Shown here: one piece after another, positions 11,490 to 35,332 of the stretch
Layout: the number at the start of each line of letters is the position of its first letter
How positions within the stretch are numbered: the stretch's first letter is position 1
NCBI RefSeq assembly: GCF_054482525.1
Contig: NZ_CM137006.1
DNA length: 64,000 bases
Reading direction: 5' to 3' (one strand)
Position numbers and translations under genes: made by a program
The notes under the pieces: model-generated
Told to the model about the DNA's origin: nothing
The model's input: the letters and a program-made list of their open reading frames with translations, nothing else
Databases searched by the model: none

Positions 11490-11783
11490 ATGAAAAAAAT
11501 GCTACTCGCTACTGCGCTGGCCCTGCTTATTACAGGATGTGCCCAACAGACGTTTACTGTTCAAAACAAACCGGCAGCAGTAACACCAAAGGAAACCATC
11601 ACCCACCATTTCTTCGTCTCTGGAATTGGGCAGAAGAAAACTGTCGATGCAGCTAAAATTTGTGGCGGCGCAGAAAATGTTGTTAAAACAGAAACCCAGC
11701 AAACATTCGTAAATGGATTGCTCGGTTTTATTACTTTAGGCATTTATACTCCGCTGGAAGCGCGTGTGTATTGCTCACAATAA
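11490..11783 (+). CDS. bor: Bor outer-membrane lipoprotein (serum-resistance moron)
   Basis: 97 aa, MKKMLLATALALLITGCAQQTFTVQNKPAAV..., lipobox LITGC; reads as lambda Bor; opposite strand to lysis genes as in lambda. Confidence 0.92.
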   Translation: MKKMLLATALALLITGCAQQTFTVQNKPAAVTPKETITHHFFVSGIGQKKTVDAAKICGGAENVVKTETQQTFVNGLLGFITLGIYTPLEARVYCSQ

Positions 11784-15667: not shown

Positions 15668-16465
15668 TTACTCTCTGGAAGCTTTTCTTATCTCTCTTGG
15701 TGTTATATTAAAACGATTATGAAATCTTTCAGTAAAACGAGAAGGACACTTATAACCATTTTCTCTGGCAATCTCGCTTATAGGTTTTACCGTCGTTTGT
15801 ATAGCAGACAACGCATTATTTAACCTCACATCGTCCAGTATACTTTGGAAACTTACCCCCTCGCTTGCTAGACGGCGATGTAATGTAGAAACAGAAATGT
15901 AGAGATATCGTGCAACCTTGTTTGCTGTCCATTTTGTGCCGGGTTCGGATAGCAGCAGGCTATAACAACGACTTATCAATGATTGTTTACTATATGATAA
16001 AAGTAAATGATTAACATGATTCACTCCTAACGAAAGTAGAACGCCCATTGCTAAGTGTTCCTGAATTTTAGTTGAGAAGCCTCGGGAAACAGATGTTTTT
16101 AGTTGCTCCCAACAATATATTAACTCAGGATTCTGAGGTAAAAAGAAACTTGTTTTGTTACGTATTTGATCAGTTACCGTATAAAGTTTTTGGAAACTCT
16201 CAATTAAATCAATGGGTAAGTAAAGCATTTCTGCAAGATAAAGCCCTGCTTCAGGATAATTCTCAATATAAAATTCATAACCACAAGGAAATAATATTAT
16301 TTGATTATTATCAACAGTTAAAGTATGCGTCTCCCAATTGATAACTTTCTTTCCCTGACGGATACGACACAAAGCTGGCATAAGAGGCTTAACCCTATGA
16401 ATCTCATGATGTTTATGCATTCGTATTTCTTCGATCTTTAAGTTAGTCTTACCTCTTGCCAGCAT
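15668..16465 (-). CDS. AraC/XylS-family transcriptional regulator (ybcM-like), prophage cargo
   Basis: 265 aa with C-terminal AraC-type HTH (...[39 protein letters not shown]...); AT-rich gene. Confidence 0.85.
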
Positions 16466-16474
16466 ACTCTCACC

Positions 16475-17026
16475 CTACTTTATCTCATAAACTGGTGTTA
16501 TCTCAGCGGTTGCGATTTTATTAGCATTAAGCATATAACCAACTAACGCTCCGCTGGAGTTAGAATCTACAGGAATCTTTTCAGTTTTTAGAGCCCATAC
16601 TTTAAACTGGTAATGATGTGGTTTATCTCCTTTAGGAGGACATGCGCCACCAAACCCAGCATAGCCAAAATCATTTCGGCCTTGAACAGCACCAGTCGGC
16701 AGTTTTGTTCCATCACGTCTCCCTGCATCAACGGGCAAATATGTTACTGTTGCTGGAATATTAACAACAGTCCAATGCCACCAACCACTGCCTGTAGGTG
16801 CATCTGGATCATATACAGTTACGGCAAAGCTTTTGGTACCTTCAGGAACACCAGACCAGGTTAATGAGGGCGATGTATTACCACCTTCACACCCAAATCC
16901 AGAAAAGACATGAGACGTTGTAAGTTGCTCTCCTGTTTTTATTTCATTACTAGTGACCTGAAATGCTGCAGCCTGCGCAGAAAATGTTATGAATGCCAAT
17001 ACAGTTGAAACGATAAGTGTTTTCAT
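16475..17026 (-). CDS. Periplasmic PEBP/YbhB-family protein (ybcL-like) with signal peptide
   Basis: 183 aa, N-terminal signal peptide MKTLIVSTVLAFITFSAQAAAFQ; PEBP-like motifs (DPDAPTGSGWWHW, GYAGFGGACPPKGDKPHHYQF). Confidence 0.85.
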   Translation of the reverse strand: MKTLIVSTVLAFITFSAQAAAFQVTSNEIKTGEQLTTSHVFSGFGCEGGNTSPSLTWSGVPEGTKSFAVTVYDPDAPTGSGWWHWTVVNIPATVTYLPVDAGRRDGTKLPTGAVQGRNDFGYAGFGGACPPKGDKPHHYQFKVWALKTEKIPVDSNSSGALVGYMLNANKIATAEITPVYEIK

Positions 17027-17243
17027 AAAAACCTCTTTGTTATGACCTATCGTTATTTTATTTGATATTCCTTTATCTCATTATGCATAAAGGCGCAATG
17101 TTCATGCAAAAGCAATCACAATTGTACCCCCAACCCAATTATTTGCCACAATATACACAAAGCACATTGATACTATCTAAAAACTCTGCTTTATTATTAG
17201 TAATACCTACGAAAGTTGGTGTTATTTTTTAACCTACCATTCA

Positions 17244-17293
17244 AAATACGTGACATACACCATTTTGCTCATAATAATTTGTCACGTATTTTC
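17244..17293. repeat. Perfect 13-bp inverted repeat AAAATACGTGACA / TGTCACGTATTTT with 24-bp spacer
   Basis: Read directly from sequence in the AT-rich spacer between the recombinase 3' end and the PEBP gene start. Confidence 0.6.
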
Positions 17294-17490
17294 AGTATTT
17301 GAATCTGCGACCAAGAGTTCTCACCTAACAAATGATTAAGATTGTATAGCTCATTTACTACCCCAATACAGCCGTACAAAACTCGCTTGTGGGAGCAAAC
17401 AAAGTAATTACCCATTAAGTTTCGTTAAAGATAATTAATTCTGTCTTGCACTTTATCATCATAGCATAACTTAAAATCCGAGATCATTAT

Positions 17491-19017
17491 TTAGAAATAA
17501 ATCTCACCATCAACCATATATTTGAGAGCACTTATCGCCTGCTGGGCGGATATTACTTTCATTAAAGGATAGTGTTTAAAAACAATGCCATTCATAAAAT
17601 AGATATCACAGGTTTTATTATCCGTATTAATTATGATTTTTTCGAATGTTTTATAGGCAAGTGTACGGCATAACTCTCGTCCATTTTTACTGGTTAAGTC
17701 AATAGCATAAAAATCACTGAATGAATTTACACCTTTACTCTTCAAAGTTTTCAATGATACCGAAGCCCTTCGTAATTCCTTATCTAATAGTCTTATTTTC
17801 TCTGCTATAGCGGTAACTTCAGGCGCGACAGACAATGCAACGATTAAATTATTAATTTTCATCTGAAGCTCAATAATTTTTAACTCTAAAGTTTCATTAG
17901 CATCTTTCTTGTTTTCAACTGGTTGAATTTTGCTACAATTAAAAAGCAATTCATTAATGATATTATAATCAACCAAATCTCTTTTTATTGATGGCCTGTC
18001 ACATCGATGTAATCTTCTCATCGGACAAACATAATAGCCATGCAAACTTCCAGATACCGCATGAACAATCATGGTATTACCACAAGCCTCACACTTCATA
18101 ACTGTTCGAAGTAGATTTATTAGCATAGGATTCTTGCTACTATTGCTAATACCAAAAGGTGCCAACCGAATTTCCTGTACAGCGTAAAACAAATCATCTG
18201 ATATGACTCTGGGATAATAGCCAGCGATTTCACTTATCCCTTTCCCTCTTGCACGATATGAAGGTACGCATATACCTATCAGAGCTTTATTCGCTAATAA
18301 TTTTTCAATTACAGAAGGTCCCCATGCACTTTCTTTTCCTGAGAAATTCTTTACAGCATGATCATTTAAATACTTGGCTATTGCATTCAATGAGCGCCTT
18401 TCCATCCTGAGTTTAAAAATTAGCTCAATAGTTTTCACCCTGTCGGGGTCTGGAACAAAAGCCGTTCTTTTGTCATCTAAGGAGAGCCATCTCGGACAAG
18501 ACGCCGTCATAATCGTACCTGATTCCAGTGCATCCTGCCGTTTTTTCTTCCATGATAATTTAACCCGACTTGACTTTATCTCGCTTTCTTCATTTGCCCT
18601 TTGTGCTATAAGTATGGCTTTTATTAATGAATATGGCTCATTCAAAGAGTCAATATTATAGACTGTATTGTCGCAAAGAGTTATAACATCAATACCGTGA
18701 TTCAAAATCAATTTCAGACGTTCAATCGCTTCACCGACTTTTTCTCTTGAAAGTCTGTCCAGACTTTCAACTAACAATGTAGTTCCTGGCAATATATAAC
18801 CATGCTCTATAGCATCTAAAAATTCCGAAAAAGCTCCTGATTGTGCATGCTTTCCTTTGAATGCACTTAATCCTAAATCTTCATATGTTATGGTATCAAG
18901 ATAATAATCACTATTTACCTTTAACCATTCAGCAATAAGTCTTCTCTGTCGGTTTAATGAGTCGCCAGACATCTGACCTGGTGATGAAAATCGCATATAT
19001 GCTATGGCTTTTTTCAT
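17491..19017 (-). CDS. Large serine recombinase (ybcK-like), 508 aa
   Basis: N-terminal resolvase/invertase catalytic motif (AIAYMRFSSPGQ...SLNRQ), central recombinase domain, C-terminal Cys-rich zinc-ribbon (CEACGNTM...CPMRRLHRC). Confidence 0.85.
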   Translation of the reverse strand: MKKAIAYMRFSSPGQMSGDSLNRQRRLIAEWLKVNSDYYLDTITYEDLGLSAFKGKHAQSGAFSEFLDAIEHGYILPGTTLLVESLDRLSREKVGEAIERLKLILNHGIDVITLCDNTVYNIDSLNEPYSLIKAILIAQRANEESEIKSSRVKLSWKKKRQDALESGTIMTASCPRWLSLDDKRTAFVPDPDRVKTIELIFKLRMERRSLNAIAKYLNDHAVKNFSGKESAWGPSVIEKLLANKALIGICVPSYRARGKGISEIAGYYPRVISDDLFYAVQEIRLAPFGISNSSKNPMLINLLRTVMKCEACGNTMIVHAVSGSLHGYYVCPMRRLHRCDRPSIKRDLVDYNIINELLFNCSKIQPVENKKDANETLELKIIELQMKINNLIVALSVAPEVTAIAEKIRLLDKELRRASVSLKTLKSKGVNSFSDFYAIDLTSKNGRELCRTLAYKTFEKIIINTDNKTCDIYFMNGIVFKHYPLMKVISAQQAISALKYMVDGEIYF

Positions 19018-23397: not shown

Positions 23398-23667
23398 ATG
23401 AGTGATAAAAAACTTATAAAAAAATCAAATAACTGTGTAGATGCATATGCTGATGCATTTGGATATTCATCTTTTGGGGAAGATGACGATCGCTTAGGCT
23501 CCATATCTTTCTTTCAGCATGTTACAGAATGGGGCGCTGATGGTAGTAATGACACTGAAAACGTAAAGTACAACATTGCAACAATTCGCATGACGGAAGA
23601 TTTAATGCTTAAACTCGCTGACTTTATTCGCGATCAGCATGATAGAGCTAAAACCAATAAGTCATAA
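23398..23667 (+). CDS. Hypothetical acidic protein (89 aa), first gene of the repressor-downstream moron
   Basis: ATG start with upstream AAAGG; no family recognised; C-terminal KYNIATIRMTEDLMLKLADFIR is reminiscent of a ribbon-helix-helix strand-helix. Confidence 0.5.
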   Translation: MSDKKLIKKSNNCVDAYADAFGYSSFGEDDDRLGSISFFQHVTEWGADGSNDTENVKYNIATIRMTEDLMLKLADFIRDQHDRAKTNKS

Positions 23668-28092: not shown

Positions 28093-28329
28093 ATGTCTCG
28101 ACTAATCACTTTACAGGACTGGGCTAAAGAAGAATTTGGGGACTTAGCACCAAGTGAGCGAGTTCTGAAAAAATACGCGCAAGGGAAAATGATGGCCCCA
28201 CCCGCTATAAAAGTTGGTCGCTACTGGATGATTGACCGAAATTCCCGTTTTGTAGGAACGCTTGCAGAACCGCAACTCCCAATAAACGCAAACCCAAAAC
28301 TCCAACGGATAATCGCTGATGGCTGCTAG
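28093..28329 (+). CDS. xis: Excisionase (Xis-like)
   Basis: 78 aa; N-terminus MSRLITLQDW... parallels lambda Xis MYLTLQEW...; AGGAGG RBS; 3' end overlaps int start. Confidence 0.7.
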   Translation: MSRLITLQDWAKEEFGDLAPSERVLKKYAQGKMMAPPAIKVGRYWMIDRNSRFVGTLAEPQLPINANPKLQRIIADGC

Positions 28330-29461
28330 ACCCCGATCTCACAAAATCTCTATACCCAATTTATATTGCAAATTAGATAAGCGAACCGGAAAGGTATATT
28401 GGCAATACAAACATCCACTATCCGGTCGTTTTCATAGCTTAGGAACTGATGAGAATGAAGCAAAACAAGTTGCTACTGAAGCAAATACCATTATTGCTGA
28501 ACAACGTACCCGACAAATATTAAGCGTCAATGAGCGTCTAGAAAGAATGAAAGGCAGGCGCTCAGACATTACGGTGACAGAATGGCTTGATAAATATATT
28601 TCTATCCAGGAGGACAGGCTGCAACATAATGAACTAAAACCCAACTCCTATCGGCAAAAAGGTAAACCCATTCGTCTTTTCCGTGAGCATTGTGGAATGC
28701 AACACCTCAAGGATATTACCGCACTTGATATTGCCGAAATAATTGATGCTGTAAAGGCTGAAGGTCATAACAGGATGGCGCAAGTCGTGAGAATGGTGTT
28801 GATCGACGTCTTCAAAGAAGCACAACACGCAGGACATGTTCCGCCAGGATTTAACCCAGCGCAGGCAACAAAACAACCGCGAAATCGAGTAAACCGCCAA
28901 AGATTATCACTGCCCGAATGGCAGGCAATATTTGAAAGCATAAGCAGACGGCAGCCCTATTTAAAATGCGGCATGCTACTTGCTCTTGTTACTGGACAAC
29001 GTTTAGGCGATATCTGCAATTTGAAATTCTCTGATATATGGGACGACATGTTGCACATTACTCAGGAAAAAACCGGTTCAAAACTTGCTATTCCGCTTAG
29101 CCTGAAATGCGATGCTCTGAATATTACCCTTCGTGAAGTTATATCTCAGTGCAGGGATGCTGTTGTTAGTAAATATCTGGTCCATTACCGTCACACTACC
29201 TCTCAAGCAAACAGAGGAGACCAGGTTTCTGCAAATACTCTTACAACGGCTTTTAAAAAGGCCAGGGAAAAATGTGGCATAAAATGGGAGCCAGGAACTG
29301 CGCCCACATTTCATGAGCAGCGATCTCTGTCAGAACGGTTATATCGGGAACAGGGTCTGGATACGCAAAAGTTGTTAGGTCATAAATCCAGAAAAATGAC
29401 CGACCGATACAATGATGATCGTGGTAAAGACTGGATTATCGTAGATATCAAAACAGCATAG
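28319..29461 (+). CDS. int: Tyrosine integrase, lambda Int family
   Basis: 380 aa; motifs shared with lambda Int (RSHK near N-terminus, ...VTGQRLGDICNLKFSDI..., ...TFHEQRSLSERLY..., ...LLGHKS...RY.DDRG..W); adjacent to the attachment junction. Confidence 0.9.
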   Translation: MAARPRSHKISIPNLYCKLDKRTGKVYWQYKHPLSGRFHSLGTDENEAKQVATEANTIIAEQRTRQILSVNERLERMKGRRSDITVTEWLDKYISIQEDRLQHNELKPNSYRQKGKPIRLFREHCGMQHLKDITALDIAEIIDAVKAEGHNRMAQVVRMVLIDVFKEAQHAGHVPPGFNPAQATKQPRNRVNRQRLSLPEWQAIFESISRRQPYLKCGMLLALVTGQRLGDICNLKFSDIWDDMLHITQEKTGSKLAIPLSLKCDALNITLREVISQCRDAVVSKYLVHYRHTTSQANRGDQVSANTLTTAFKKAREKCGIKWEPGTAPTFHEQRSLSERLYREQGLDTQKLLGHKSRKMTDRYNDDRGKDWIIVDIKTA

Positions 29462-29471
29462 AAAATAGCCA

Positions 29472-29509
29472 GTTTTGGGGAAGGGTTTTGGGGAAAGTTT
29501 TGGGGAAGA
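29472..29509. repeat. Three tandem GTTTTGGGGAA(A/G) repeats, candidate arm-type Int binding sites of the att junction
   Basis: Direct repeats at 29472, 29485 and 29497 between the int stop and the icd terminator hairpin. Confidence 0.4.
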
Positions 29510-29528
29510 TTTTACATCATCATAAAAC

Positions 29529-29551
29529 AACGGGCGTGTTATACGCCCGTT
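29529..29551. terminator. Hairpin terminator shared by convergent int and icd
   Basis: ACGGGCG-TGTTATA-CGCCCGT with T-rich flank on the icd (minus) strand. Confidence 0.5.
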
Positions 29552-29574
29552 TCAATATTTAACACATGTAGTGA

Positions 29575-30825
29575 TTACATATTCTTGATGATCGCGTCAC
29601 CAAACTCTGAACATTTCAGCAGTTTAGCGCCTTCCATCAGACGTTCGAAGTCATAGGTTACAGTCTTGGCGTTGATCGCGCCTTCCATACCTTTAACAAT
29701 CAGGTCTGCGGCTTCAGTCCAGCCCATATGGCGCAGCATCATCTCAGCGGAGAGAATAATAGAGCCTGGGTTTACTTTGTCCTGACCGGCATATTTCGGC
29801 GCAGTACCGTGGGTGGCTTCAAACAGGGCGCATTCGTCACCGATGTTTGCGCCTGGGGCGATACCGATACCGCCGACCTGTGCAGCCAGAGCGTCAGAAA
29901 TGTAGTCACCGTTCAGGTTCATACAGGCGATAACATCATATTCAGCCGGACGCAGCAGAATCTGTTGCAGGAATGCATCAGCAATCACGTCTTTAATGAC
30001 GATCTCTTTGCCGGTATTCGGATTTTTAACTTTCAGCCACGGGCCGCCGTCGATCAGTTCACCGCCAAACTCTTCACGCGCCAGCTGGTAGCCCCAGTCT
30101 TTAAACGCGCCTTCGGTGAATTTCATGATGTTGCCTTTGTGAACCAGGGTCACAGAGTCACGATCGTTAGCAATTGCGTATTCGATCGCTGCACGAACCA
30201 GACGTTTGGTGCCTTCTTCAGAACACGGCTTAATACCGATGCCGCAATGTTCCGGGAAGCGAATTTTCTTCACACCCATCTCTTCACGCAGGAATTTAAT
30301 CACTTTCTCAGCGTCGGCAGAGTCTGCTTTCCATTCGATACCCGCATAAATGTCTTCCGAGTTTTCACGGAAGATAACCATATCGGTCAGTTCAGGGTGT
30401 TTAACCGGGCTTGGGGTGCCCTGGTAGTAACGTACCGGACGCAGGCAGATATAGAGATCCAGCTCCTGGCGCAGGGCAACGTTCAGAGAGCGAATACCGC
30501 CACCAACCGGAGTGGTCAGCGGGCCTTTGATGGCAACGCGATATTCACGAATCAGATCAAGGGTTTCAGCAGGTAGCCAGACATCCTGACCATAAACCTG
30601 TGTGGATTTTTCACCGGTGTAAATTTCCATCCAGGAGATTTTACGCTCGCCTTTATAGGCTTTCTCGACTGCAGCGTCGACCACTTTCAGCATGGCTGGG
30701 GTTACATCTACACCGATTCCATCACCTTCAATGTAAGGGATAATCGGATTTTCAGGAACGTTGAGTTTGCCGTTTTGCAGGGTGATCTTCTTGCCTTGTG
30801 CCGGAACAACTACTTTACTTTCCAT
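29575..30825 (-). CDS. icd: Isocitrate dehydrogenase (NADP), 3' end contributed by the prophage
   Basis: 416 aa, [38 protein letters not shown]..., ends ...FGDAIIKNM. Confidence 0.95.
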
Positions 30826-30996
30826 TCACCTCTCCTTCGAGCGCTACTGGTTTGCTCGTCTGCCACCACGTTGCATATGCGTTTGCGTCCTGCGATACGG
30901 ATGCTTTAGAGCAATTTTTTGTTAATGATTTGTAATTGGCTTGTCAATACTACCCTATTGTTTGCCGTCATGAAAGATGCGCGTTATTAGGCTATA

Positions 30997-31650
30997 ATGC
31001 GGCAATTCATAATCTCTGAAAATACCATGCAAAAAACTTCTTTTAGAAATCACCAGGTTAAGCGATTCAGCTCGCAACGTTCTACCAGGCGTAAACCTGA
31101 AAACCAGCCCACGCGTGTGATCCTGTTCAATAAACCCTACGATGTTCTTCCGCAGTTCACCGATGAAGCCGGACGCAAAACATTAAAAGAATTCATCCCG
31201 GTTCAGGGCGTTTATGCGGCAGGTCGTCTCGACCGCGATAGCGAAGGGTTGCTGGTGCTGACCAATAACGGCGCGTTGCAGGCGCGTTTAACCCAGCCGG
31301 GTAAACGCACCGGAAAAATCTATTATGTGCAGGTGGAAGGTATTCCCACACAAGACGCACTTGAAGCCTTGCGCAATGGCGTAACCTTAAATGATGGCCC
31401 TACCCTGCCCGCAGGCGTAGAGCTGGTTGACGAACCCGCGTGGTTATGGCCGCGGAATCCACCAATTCGTGAACGCAAAAGTATTCCCACCAGCTGGCTG
31501 AAGATCACCTTATATGAAGGACGTAATCGCCAGGTGCGCCGCATGACCGCCCATGTTGGTTTCCCCACGCTGCGACTGATTCGCTATGCGATGGGTGATT
31601 ACTCTTTGGATAATCTTGCCAACGGCGAATGGCGAGAAGCGACAGATTAA
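30997..31650 (+). CDS. rluE: 23S rRNA pseudouridine synthase RluE
   Basis: 217 aa; recognised as RluE (YmfC) by sequence and synteny next to icd. Confidence 0.9.
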
Positions 31651-31659
31651 GGACGCAAA

Positions 31660-33281
<1,622 letters not shown>

Positions 33282-33316
33282 TTATTATCTTTACTTAAAA
33301 CAAGGAAGCAGTGAAC

Positions 33317-33958
33317 GTGGCAAAGAATTACTATGACATCACCCTCGCCCTGGCCGGTATTTGTCAGTCGGCACGCCTGGTGCAACAACTCGCTCACCAG
33401 GGGCATTGTGATGCCGATGCGCTACACGTCTCACTCAACAGCATTATCGATATGAACCCCAGCTCGACGCTGGCGGTTTTTGGCGGTAGCGAAGCCAACC
33501 TGCGCGTCGGGCTGGAAACCTTGCTCGGCGTGCTCAATGCCAGCAGTCGCCAGGGCTTAAACGCTGAGTTAACCCGCTACACACTCAGCCTGATGGTGCT
33601 TGAGCGCAAACTCTCCTCAGCGAAAGGTGCGCTCGACACTCTGGGCAACCGGATCAACGGCCTGCAACGTCAGCTCGAACACTTCGATTTACAGTCCGAA
33701 ACGCTGATGAGCGCGATGGCTGCTATCTATGTTGATGTGATTAGCCCGCTTGGCCCACGCATTCAGGTCACCGGTTCCCCTGCTGTACTGCAAAGTCCAC
33801 AGGTACAGGCGAAAGTCCGCGCTACCCTGCTGGCAGGCATTCGCGCCGCCGTGCTCTGGCACCAGGTCGGCGGCGGACGTCTGCAACTGATGTTTTCTCG
33901 TAATCGCCTGACCACTCAGGCAAAACAAATTCTTGCTCATTTAACCCCGGAGTTGTGA
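33317..33958 (+). CDS. hflD: High-frequency lysogenization protein HflD
   Basis: 213-aa product (V/M)[23 protein letters not shown]...; probable GTG start. Confidence 0.85.

Positions 33959-35332
<1,374 letters not shown>

Follow-up and report, generated by a model that had tools for sequence, protein, structure and literature searches.

Positions 28093-29738 of the DNA analysed here, a stretch of 64,000 nucleotides referred to below as the window, almost certainly represent attL (B-O-P′), the end nearest to int, of a lambda-like prophage with the integration module of phage 21, inserted inside icd. The module is that of phage 21, the DNA following int is collinear with attP of free phages, the homology to attP ends within icd, and the native 3′ allele of icd has been replaced by a phage-linked one. 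As a prophage site, icd is well known, with attP carrying a replacement sequence (PMC10111431, PMC7192596). The arrangement itself is already known: the phage 21/e14 site, the phage-borne 3′ end that takes the place of the native one in icd, and the dodecamers have been described since about 1989-1997 and are annotated in GenBank. As a discovery the case is ordinary, lambda-like prophages at the icd site being common. The practical addition is a near-isogenic comparison which places the crossover within 35 bp and reveals a replacement of 12 substitutions, with synonymous coding changes.

Organization of the junction and identity of the integration module

Every feature named in the initial annotation of this DNA was found where it had been placed. 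The int and icd genes are convergent, and the junction is organized as follows.

28093..28329, + strand: xis, open reading frame for an excisionase of 78 aa, sharing 11 bp with int
28319..29461, + strand: int, open reading frame for a phage 21-type tyrosine integrase of 380 aa, stop codon TAG
29472..29508, + strand: three tandem dodecamers GTTTTGGGGAAR, putative arm-type Int sites of the P′ arm, now in attL
29522..29738, no strand: attP/host homology block (about 217 bp) with the 3′ end of icd and its terminator, from alignments; the copy here is phage-derived
29529..29551, - strand: predicted intrinsic terminator hairpin of icd, a phage-borne copy of the native one, from a terminator scan and folding
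29575-30825, - strand: full-length icd, open reading frame for 416 aa, C-terminus ...GDAIIKNM followed by the stop
29575..29738, - strand: phage-supplied icd tail (53 codons at the 3′ end, 2 nt more and the stop codon), corresponding to the 165-bp icd pseudogene of phage 21
29704..29738, no strand: interval holding the Int strand-exchange (core/overlap) site, between the last phage-versus-native substitution (29703) and the end of the attP homology (29738)
29739..30825, - strand: 5′ part of icd that comes from the host (codon 1 to about codon 362), with 100% identity to the empty-site strains PCN033 and 19KM1776

The spacer between int and icd is 113 nt long (29462-29574). The closeness of int to the icd stop codon had been described correctly; the distance of 114 bp given for it is a stop-to-stop count. 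An Rfam scan of the whole 64-kb window at gathering thresholds gave 0 matches, and the spacer overlaps no known RNA family. Past icd, the window continues with rluE, nudJ and mnmA, the usual E. coli neighbourhood. The prophage genes from position 1 onward are those for tail and head, terminase, lysis, Q, replication, immunity and exo/bet.

The Int protein is identical to that of phage 21 at 374/380 aa (98.4%). Xis is identical over its entire length (78/78 aa, 100%) to the phage 21 protein, which is labelled excisionase in phage 21 and its relatives. Two domains were found in Int, namely the lambda-type arm-binding domain Arm-DNA-bind_1 (Pfam PF09003; residues 1-71, E = 4.9e-28) and the catalytic domain Phage_integrase (residues 200-367, E = 1.8e-23). 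At the nucleotide level, 28319-29740 matches 29 phage records with identities of 98.2-98.9%. Phage 21 (M61865; OL657228 is the complete genome) is 98.2% identical over 1420 bp; the other matching phages include ev017 (98.9%), 4A7, 3W, Perceval, 1W and many named 'Lambda_ev'.

From int to 29738 the DNA is collinear with the free-phage attP of phage 21, ev017 and 3W. In OL657228, int is followed in the same order and with the same spacing by a three-subsite attP, a terminator and an 'ICDH-like' pseudogene which corresponds to the last 53 icd codons, and both the pseudogene and the terminator are annotated in M61865 as well. The homology to attP stops within icd at 29738, at about codon 363, which bears out the earlier proposal that the prophage sits in the icd 3′ end. 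The junction has an Int orthologous to that of phage 21 with an overlapping xis, an icd surrogate contiguous with int and a crossover in icd, three of the properties by which a phage 21-type icd module is recognized. An int-icd junction of this kind is present at a coverage of at least 80% in 1687/5426 complete E. coli genomes (31%).

The initial annotation had also likened the element to the icd-integrating e14 and phage 21, with a lambda-like structural backbone. This description agrees with the phage 21 module found here and with the head and terminase genes, which are about 96-97% identical to lambda in nucleotide sequence. The region 1-25000 of the window has, over 56-84% of its length, 96-97% identity to lambda and to lambda-like ECOR phages, with PhiR34_1 and PhiR47_2 among the matches.

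Cargo genes were seen at several places. The nin/Q region of the window (15668-19017, - strand) holds DLP12-like cargo coding for an AraC-family regulator of 265 aa, a YbcL-type kinase inhibitor of 183 aa (NF007330, E = 1e-120) and a serine-recombinase-like protein of 508 aa with a weak match to XisF. Between the lysis genes and Nu1, at 11490-11783 (+ strand), lies an open reading frame for a lipoprotein of 97 aa; it has no NCBIfam match. In the prophage of strain UPEC132 the gene at the equivalent position is annotated iss (increased serum survival, Bor-like), and the two products share 90/97 aa, or 91/98 when the stop codon is counted. The UPEC132 prophage and phage 3W are lambda-like phages with the 21-type att site. 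Both carry cargo by attP, in the equivalent of the b region, that codes for the iron/manganese transporter sitABCD (UPEC132, L004 1442-4891; 3W, L010 3537-3820).

Replacement of the icd 3′ end

The alignments included the window, the attP regions of phage 21, ev017 and 3W, the lysogens UPEC132 and O157:H7, the empty sites of O9:H10 and strain 500010, and K-12 with e14. In addition, host-only DNA of the window (29739-31000) was searched against 5,426 complete E. coli genomes. This host allele occurs in only 3 of them, PCN033 and 19KM1776 (100%) and SCU-102 (99.9%). In all three the site is empty, and icd is followed by iraM, ymgK, IS200C, ymgL, ycgX and bluR. The IS200C copy of these strains lies between ymgL and ymgK, just downstream of att (L012-L014, 1314-1772).

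Over the 4,262 bp from 29739 to 34000, PCN033 and 19KM1776 each differ from the window at 0 positions and SCU-102 at 1. Within 29522-29738 there are 12 substitutions, at 29572, 29581, 29593, 29596, 29608-29611, 29629, 29662, 29677 and 29703. The native allele of the PCN033 type reads G29581, T29593, A29596, GCTG29608-11, A29629, G29662, T29677 and A29703. The difference between block and flank (12/217 vs 0/4262) is significant (Fisher exact P = 1.2e-16). Since the substitutions are confined to exactly the block that is homologous to attP, the icd 3′ end and its terminator were supplied by the phage. The claim that the phage must supply the terminal icd codons is thus borne out by the empty-site relatives. 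Alignment with an unintegrated icd allele had been proposed as the check on this claim, with the crossover and any silent substitutions as its expected yield, and both were obtained: the crossover was located to 29704-29738, and silent substitutions were found. Indeed, each of the 11 coding changes that came with the prophage is synonymous, and thus the Icd protein is left unchanged by the prophage.

UPEC132 is an unrelated lysogen. Its sequence is the same as that of the window from int through 29784, after which 12/453 positions (2.6%) differ in the host part of icd. Taken together, the empty-site differences and the identity with UPEC132 indicate that the 217-bp block moves together with the prophage rather than with the host DNA. 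For annotation, the prophage boundary is to be placed at 29704-29738, the last 164 nt of icd and the terminator being phage DNA. A caution also follows for MLST-type comparisons that draw on icd 3′ polymorphism: such variation can stem from the history of prophages rather than from host descent.

The phage copies of the block are themselves polymorphic. Those of the window, phage 21, ev017 and 3W differ from one another at 7-13/217 positions; the window copy is a different mosaic, with 13 differences from phage 21 and 8-9 from 3W and ev017, to which it is closer. Variants like those of the window, TGAA at 29608-11 and the CTT Lys codon, occur in attP of the free phages ev017 and 3W. The empty site of strain 500010 differs from the window block at 6/217 positions. 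In this strain, genes of the STM2901 family and with DUF1493 follow icd (L008 4346-5130) where other strains have rluE, and rluE was not found within the fetched stretch.

At icd, the O157:H7 lysogen ECP19-598 (L005 1260-2402) has a 21-type element in decay: int is interrupted by an internal stop codon, and the replication gene is truncated directly beside xis. The icd-like block of this element is again a different mosaic, with 8/164 differences from the window.

The initial annotation had set the C-terminus of Icd, AIIKNM here, against AIIENM in K-12. The K-12 ending was given correctly, K-12 Icd ending in ...GDAIIENM. K-12 icd, however, is not an unintegrated reference, because its 3′ end comes from e14. 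All 21-type attP copies encode ...KNM, and Icd of the empty-site strains PCN033, 19KM1776, SCU-102 and strain 500010 also ends in ...KNM; the empty O9:H10 allele ends in ...GEAIIENM. With KNM present in four empty-site strains and the coding changes synonymous, the E to K difference was rejected as a marker of phage origin. The K residue is an allele common to phages and some chromosomes and no mark of this insertion.

Hairpin and dodecamers of the spacer

The hairpin at 29529-29551 has a stem of 9 bp with 6 G-C pairs and a loop of 5, and a centroid energy of -15.3 kcal/mol on either strand. As it lies in the host-homologous block and is conserved in the empty sites, it represents the native icd terminator carried by the phage. 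In e14, two base pairs of the stem are changed on both sides in a compensatory way, with A-T for C-G and C-G for T-A (arms AACGGGCGT/ACGCCCGTT in the window vs AACGGGAGC/GCTCCCGTT in e14), and this preservation of the stem argues that the hairpin is functional. The terminator scan picks out the hairpin on the icd (-) strand, where the tail GTTTTATGAT provides a T-run after the stem, and the hairpin probably acts as the terminator of icd.

The hairpin had been proposed to terminate both convergent genes. The hairpin itself and its fit to a terminator on the icd strand stand. On the int (+) strand the tail TTTCAATATTT falls below the criterion of the scan, which does not support the other half of the proposal. 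Termination of int at the hairpin is plausible: the stem is equally stable on that strand, it lies 68 nt past the int stop codon, and TTTCAATATTT forms a partial T-run after it. Yet a true bidirectional terminator, ending int transcription as well, is on balance the less probable reading. The - strand alone passes the scan, the annotation of phage 21 puts the terminator on the icd-like strand, and the hairpin is kept in empty sites where int is absent, so that icd alone explains its conservation. The hairpin is a conserved native icd terminator and no novel shared device.

Between int and icd, three tandem repeats had been reported, and they are present at 29472-29508. The dodecamer GTTTTGGGGAAR matches exactly at 29472-29483, 29485-29496 and 29497-29508, and Tandem Repeats Finder returned a period of 13, 3.4 copies and a score of 65. 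When up to one mismatch was allowed, 4 matches were found in the window against 0.67 expected, and the 3 exact ones are adjacent. The OL657228 record carries the note 'integration site attP consists of 3 subsites P1P2P3; consensus YYTTCCCCAAAA'; this consensus is the reverse complement of the repeat given in the initial annotation.

The dodecamers are identical in attP of phage 21, ev017 and 3W and in the UPEC132 and O157 lysogens, although the adjoining icd-like block is polymorphic. Phage 21, ev017, 3W and the far end of the UPEC132 prophage each have a fourth dodecamer, ATTTTGGGGAAA, on the P arm some 120 bp past the core, and its distance from the core is the same in all the phages examined. 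The repeat thus occurs on both arms of attP, apart from the core, with three copies on P′ and one on P in phage 21, ev017 and 3W; the window contains the P′ arm only. In phage 21 the span from the first to the last dodecamer is 397 bp (2654-3050 of L001). Wang et al. are said to have delimited, in 1997, a minimal attP so as to include the outermost dodecamers. At the corresponding place e14 has three TTTTGATAA repeats, with a spacing of 13/11 vs 13/12 here and a distance to the hairpin of 32 bp vs 31 bp in the window.

The arm-binding domain of Int, the exact conservation of the repeats, the fourth copy on the P arm and the e14 triplet at the equivalent place all point to the dodecamers as putative arm-type sites, to which Int would bind. 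Against this stands their distance from the core, about 230-265 bp for the P′ copies, which would call for bending of the DNA; in lambda the core-to-P′ distance is far shorter, roughly 55-85 bp.

It is improbable that the repeats are not arm sites of Int and serve instead as Xis, IHF or Fis sites, as a regulatory element of int or as a slippage repeat devoid of function. Such a reading could draw on lambda, where Xis and Fis also bind tandem attP sites, and on the GenBank subsite note, which cites no experimental reference. It leaves the exact conservation in every 21-type attP and attL examined, beside a polymorphic block, and the lambda-type arm-binding domain of Int speaking against it. The fourth copy on the opposite arm likewise fits arm-type sites and not Xis, whose sites in lambda are on one arm only. 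The e14 and phage 21 integrases are not known to be interchangeable, the e14 enzyme having a different specificity, and the e14 triplet of another sequence at the equivalent position matches this difference. An extra copy of the 10-mer, which lies far from att, could also be counted in favor of a role other than Int binding, but it is located within an open reading frame and is missing from UPEC132.

This copy is an exact TTTTGGGGAA at 23472-23481 (as the 12-mer CTTTTGGGGAAG, one mismatch). It lies in the immunity region, some 6 kb away from att, and seems to fall within a coding sequence. It was rejected as a part of the att system on account of its coding location and its lack of a counterpart in UPEC132, and is probably a chance occurrence.

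Crossover, proposed recombination and related systems

The phage-host homology extends from 29522, just outside the hairpin, to 29738. Beyond 29738, attP continues with GTATATAAAA... and the chromosome with TCATCTCAGCGG... Strand exchange therefore took place at or before 29738, in icd near codon 363, the only place where phage and host can be joined into the observed structure. With the last phage-versus-native substitution at 29703, the crossover lies within the 35 bp of 29704-29738. Inside this interval CCCATATGGCG (29723-29733) is invariant across all the 21-type and host sequences aligned, while e14 has CCCATGTGGCG. Our best guess is that the overlap region lies in CCCATATGGCG.

A BLAST search of the window for a second copy of the icd 3′ end (word size 7) returned the self-match only, and the far end of the prophage is beyond position 1. 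The absence of a second copy anywhere in the window agrees with the expectation that the displaced icd fragment would be found outside it. The UPEC132 prophage, of 48.9 kb, has a far end with a displaced icd fragment of 168 bp (L004 362-529), and the far-end dodecamer lies at L004 645-654, about 120 bp inward of this fragment. The far-end sequence of UPEC132 (L004 311-529) is the same as the attP block of phage 21 (L001 2704-2920), with 0/217 differences, and the int-side block of this prophage differs from that of phage 21 at 13 positions. This suggests that the icd-like block moved earlier between 21-type phages and the UPEC132 host lineage.

Had the strands been exchanged at about 29522, where the homology is closest to int, icd and the terminator of the window would be entirely native and the icd-like copy of the phage would lie at the far end. 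Such a crossover would give the same attL/attR topology and would suit the UPEC132 arrangement, in which the far-end fragment and not the int-side copy equals phage 21 attP; it was nevertheless rejected on linkage evidence and is extremely improbable, because the near-isogenic empty sites differ in the block alone, because two lysogens with different host icd share the same block (about 5.7 differences would be expected at 2.6% if it were host DNA, and 0 were seen), and because ev017 and 3W hold the window-like variants in attP. In vitro work on phage 21, which is reported to have placed the core at the homology's distal end, also speaks against it.

In the free phage, attP comprises, in order, a P arm that bears a single TTTTGGGGAA dodecamer some 120 bp away from the core, the core itself, an icd surrogate of about 217 bp, the three dodecamers and the end of int. 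The surrogate consists of 53 codons with their stop codon and of the terminator of icd. With the crossover within 29704-29738, Int is proposed to act as a heterobivalent tyrosine recombinase, with its N-terminal domain on the dodecamers and its C-terminal domains on the core, and to exchange strands with attB in the region of codon 363 of icd. This would displace the native tail of icd, along with its terminator, to the far end of the prophage as a pseudogene. The synonymous copy of the phage would complete icd, leaving the TCA-cycle enzyme intact and properly terminated.

A wider reading, held only tentatively and rather unlikely as a whole, would see in the icd-like block a circulating pool of mosaic alleles that is traded between phage and chromosome at integration, excision and attL-attR recombination, in the KNM empty sites the scars of past lysogeny, and in the hairpin a bidirectional insulator. 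The facts behind it are the differences among the phage copies, the identity of the displaced UPEC132 fragment with phage 21 and the proximity of the strain 500010 block to that of the window. If it were true, the hairpin might keep read-through from int/pL out of antisense icd. A report of 1997 is said to have described how phages replace the 3′ end of icd in natural E. coli, and the mosaic-pool reading mostly extends known work.

Among the known systems, phage 21 (M61865, OL657228) resembles the window in Int (98.4%) and Xis (100%) and has an identical spacer, the three dodecamers and the hairpin; the length of the icd-like block, the base at which the homology ends and the host site are all equal. 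It differs in that the window block is 13 positions off and that head and terminase of the window are lambda-like rather than 21-like.

The defective prophage e14 of K-12 supplies the icd 3′ end, according to a passage of PMC6379469 citing Hill et al. 1989. With the window it shares the same attB inside icd, an element that supplies both the 3′ end and the terminator, and three tandem repeats of 9-12 bp with a spacing of 11-13 bp, 31-32 bp from the hairpin. In contrast to the window, its repeat is TTTTGATAA and not TTTTGGGGAA, its icd-like block is 10% divergent, its Icd ends in ...ENM, its stem carries two compensatory changes, and its int is non-adjacent, with ymfD, ymfE and lit in between.

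Lambda attP and Int (P1, P2, P′1-P′3) share with the module described here the Arm-DNA-bind_1 and catalytic domains, an xis that overlaps int, and three tandem arm-type repeats adjoining the int end with a further site or sites on the other arm. The arm consensus is different, however, and attB here is inside a protein gene. Unlike in lambda, a gene-replacement block of about 217 bp lies between the core and the P′ sites, attP is about 400 bp long, and one copy of the repeat was detected on the P arm of the 21-type attP.

A further group of known systems is that of the lambda-like prophages at the 21 site: NC-SV of E. coli NC101, a lambda-like prophage inserted where phage 21 enters icd (PMC12803456), 50icd of NRG857c and the EcCICFT073 helper (PMC10111431), and the Lambda_ev and PhiR phages. 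These combine structural, replication and recombination modules of lambda type with integration at icd, as the prophage of the window does. They differ from it in nothing that bears on the junction; cargo genes vary among the members.
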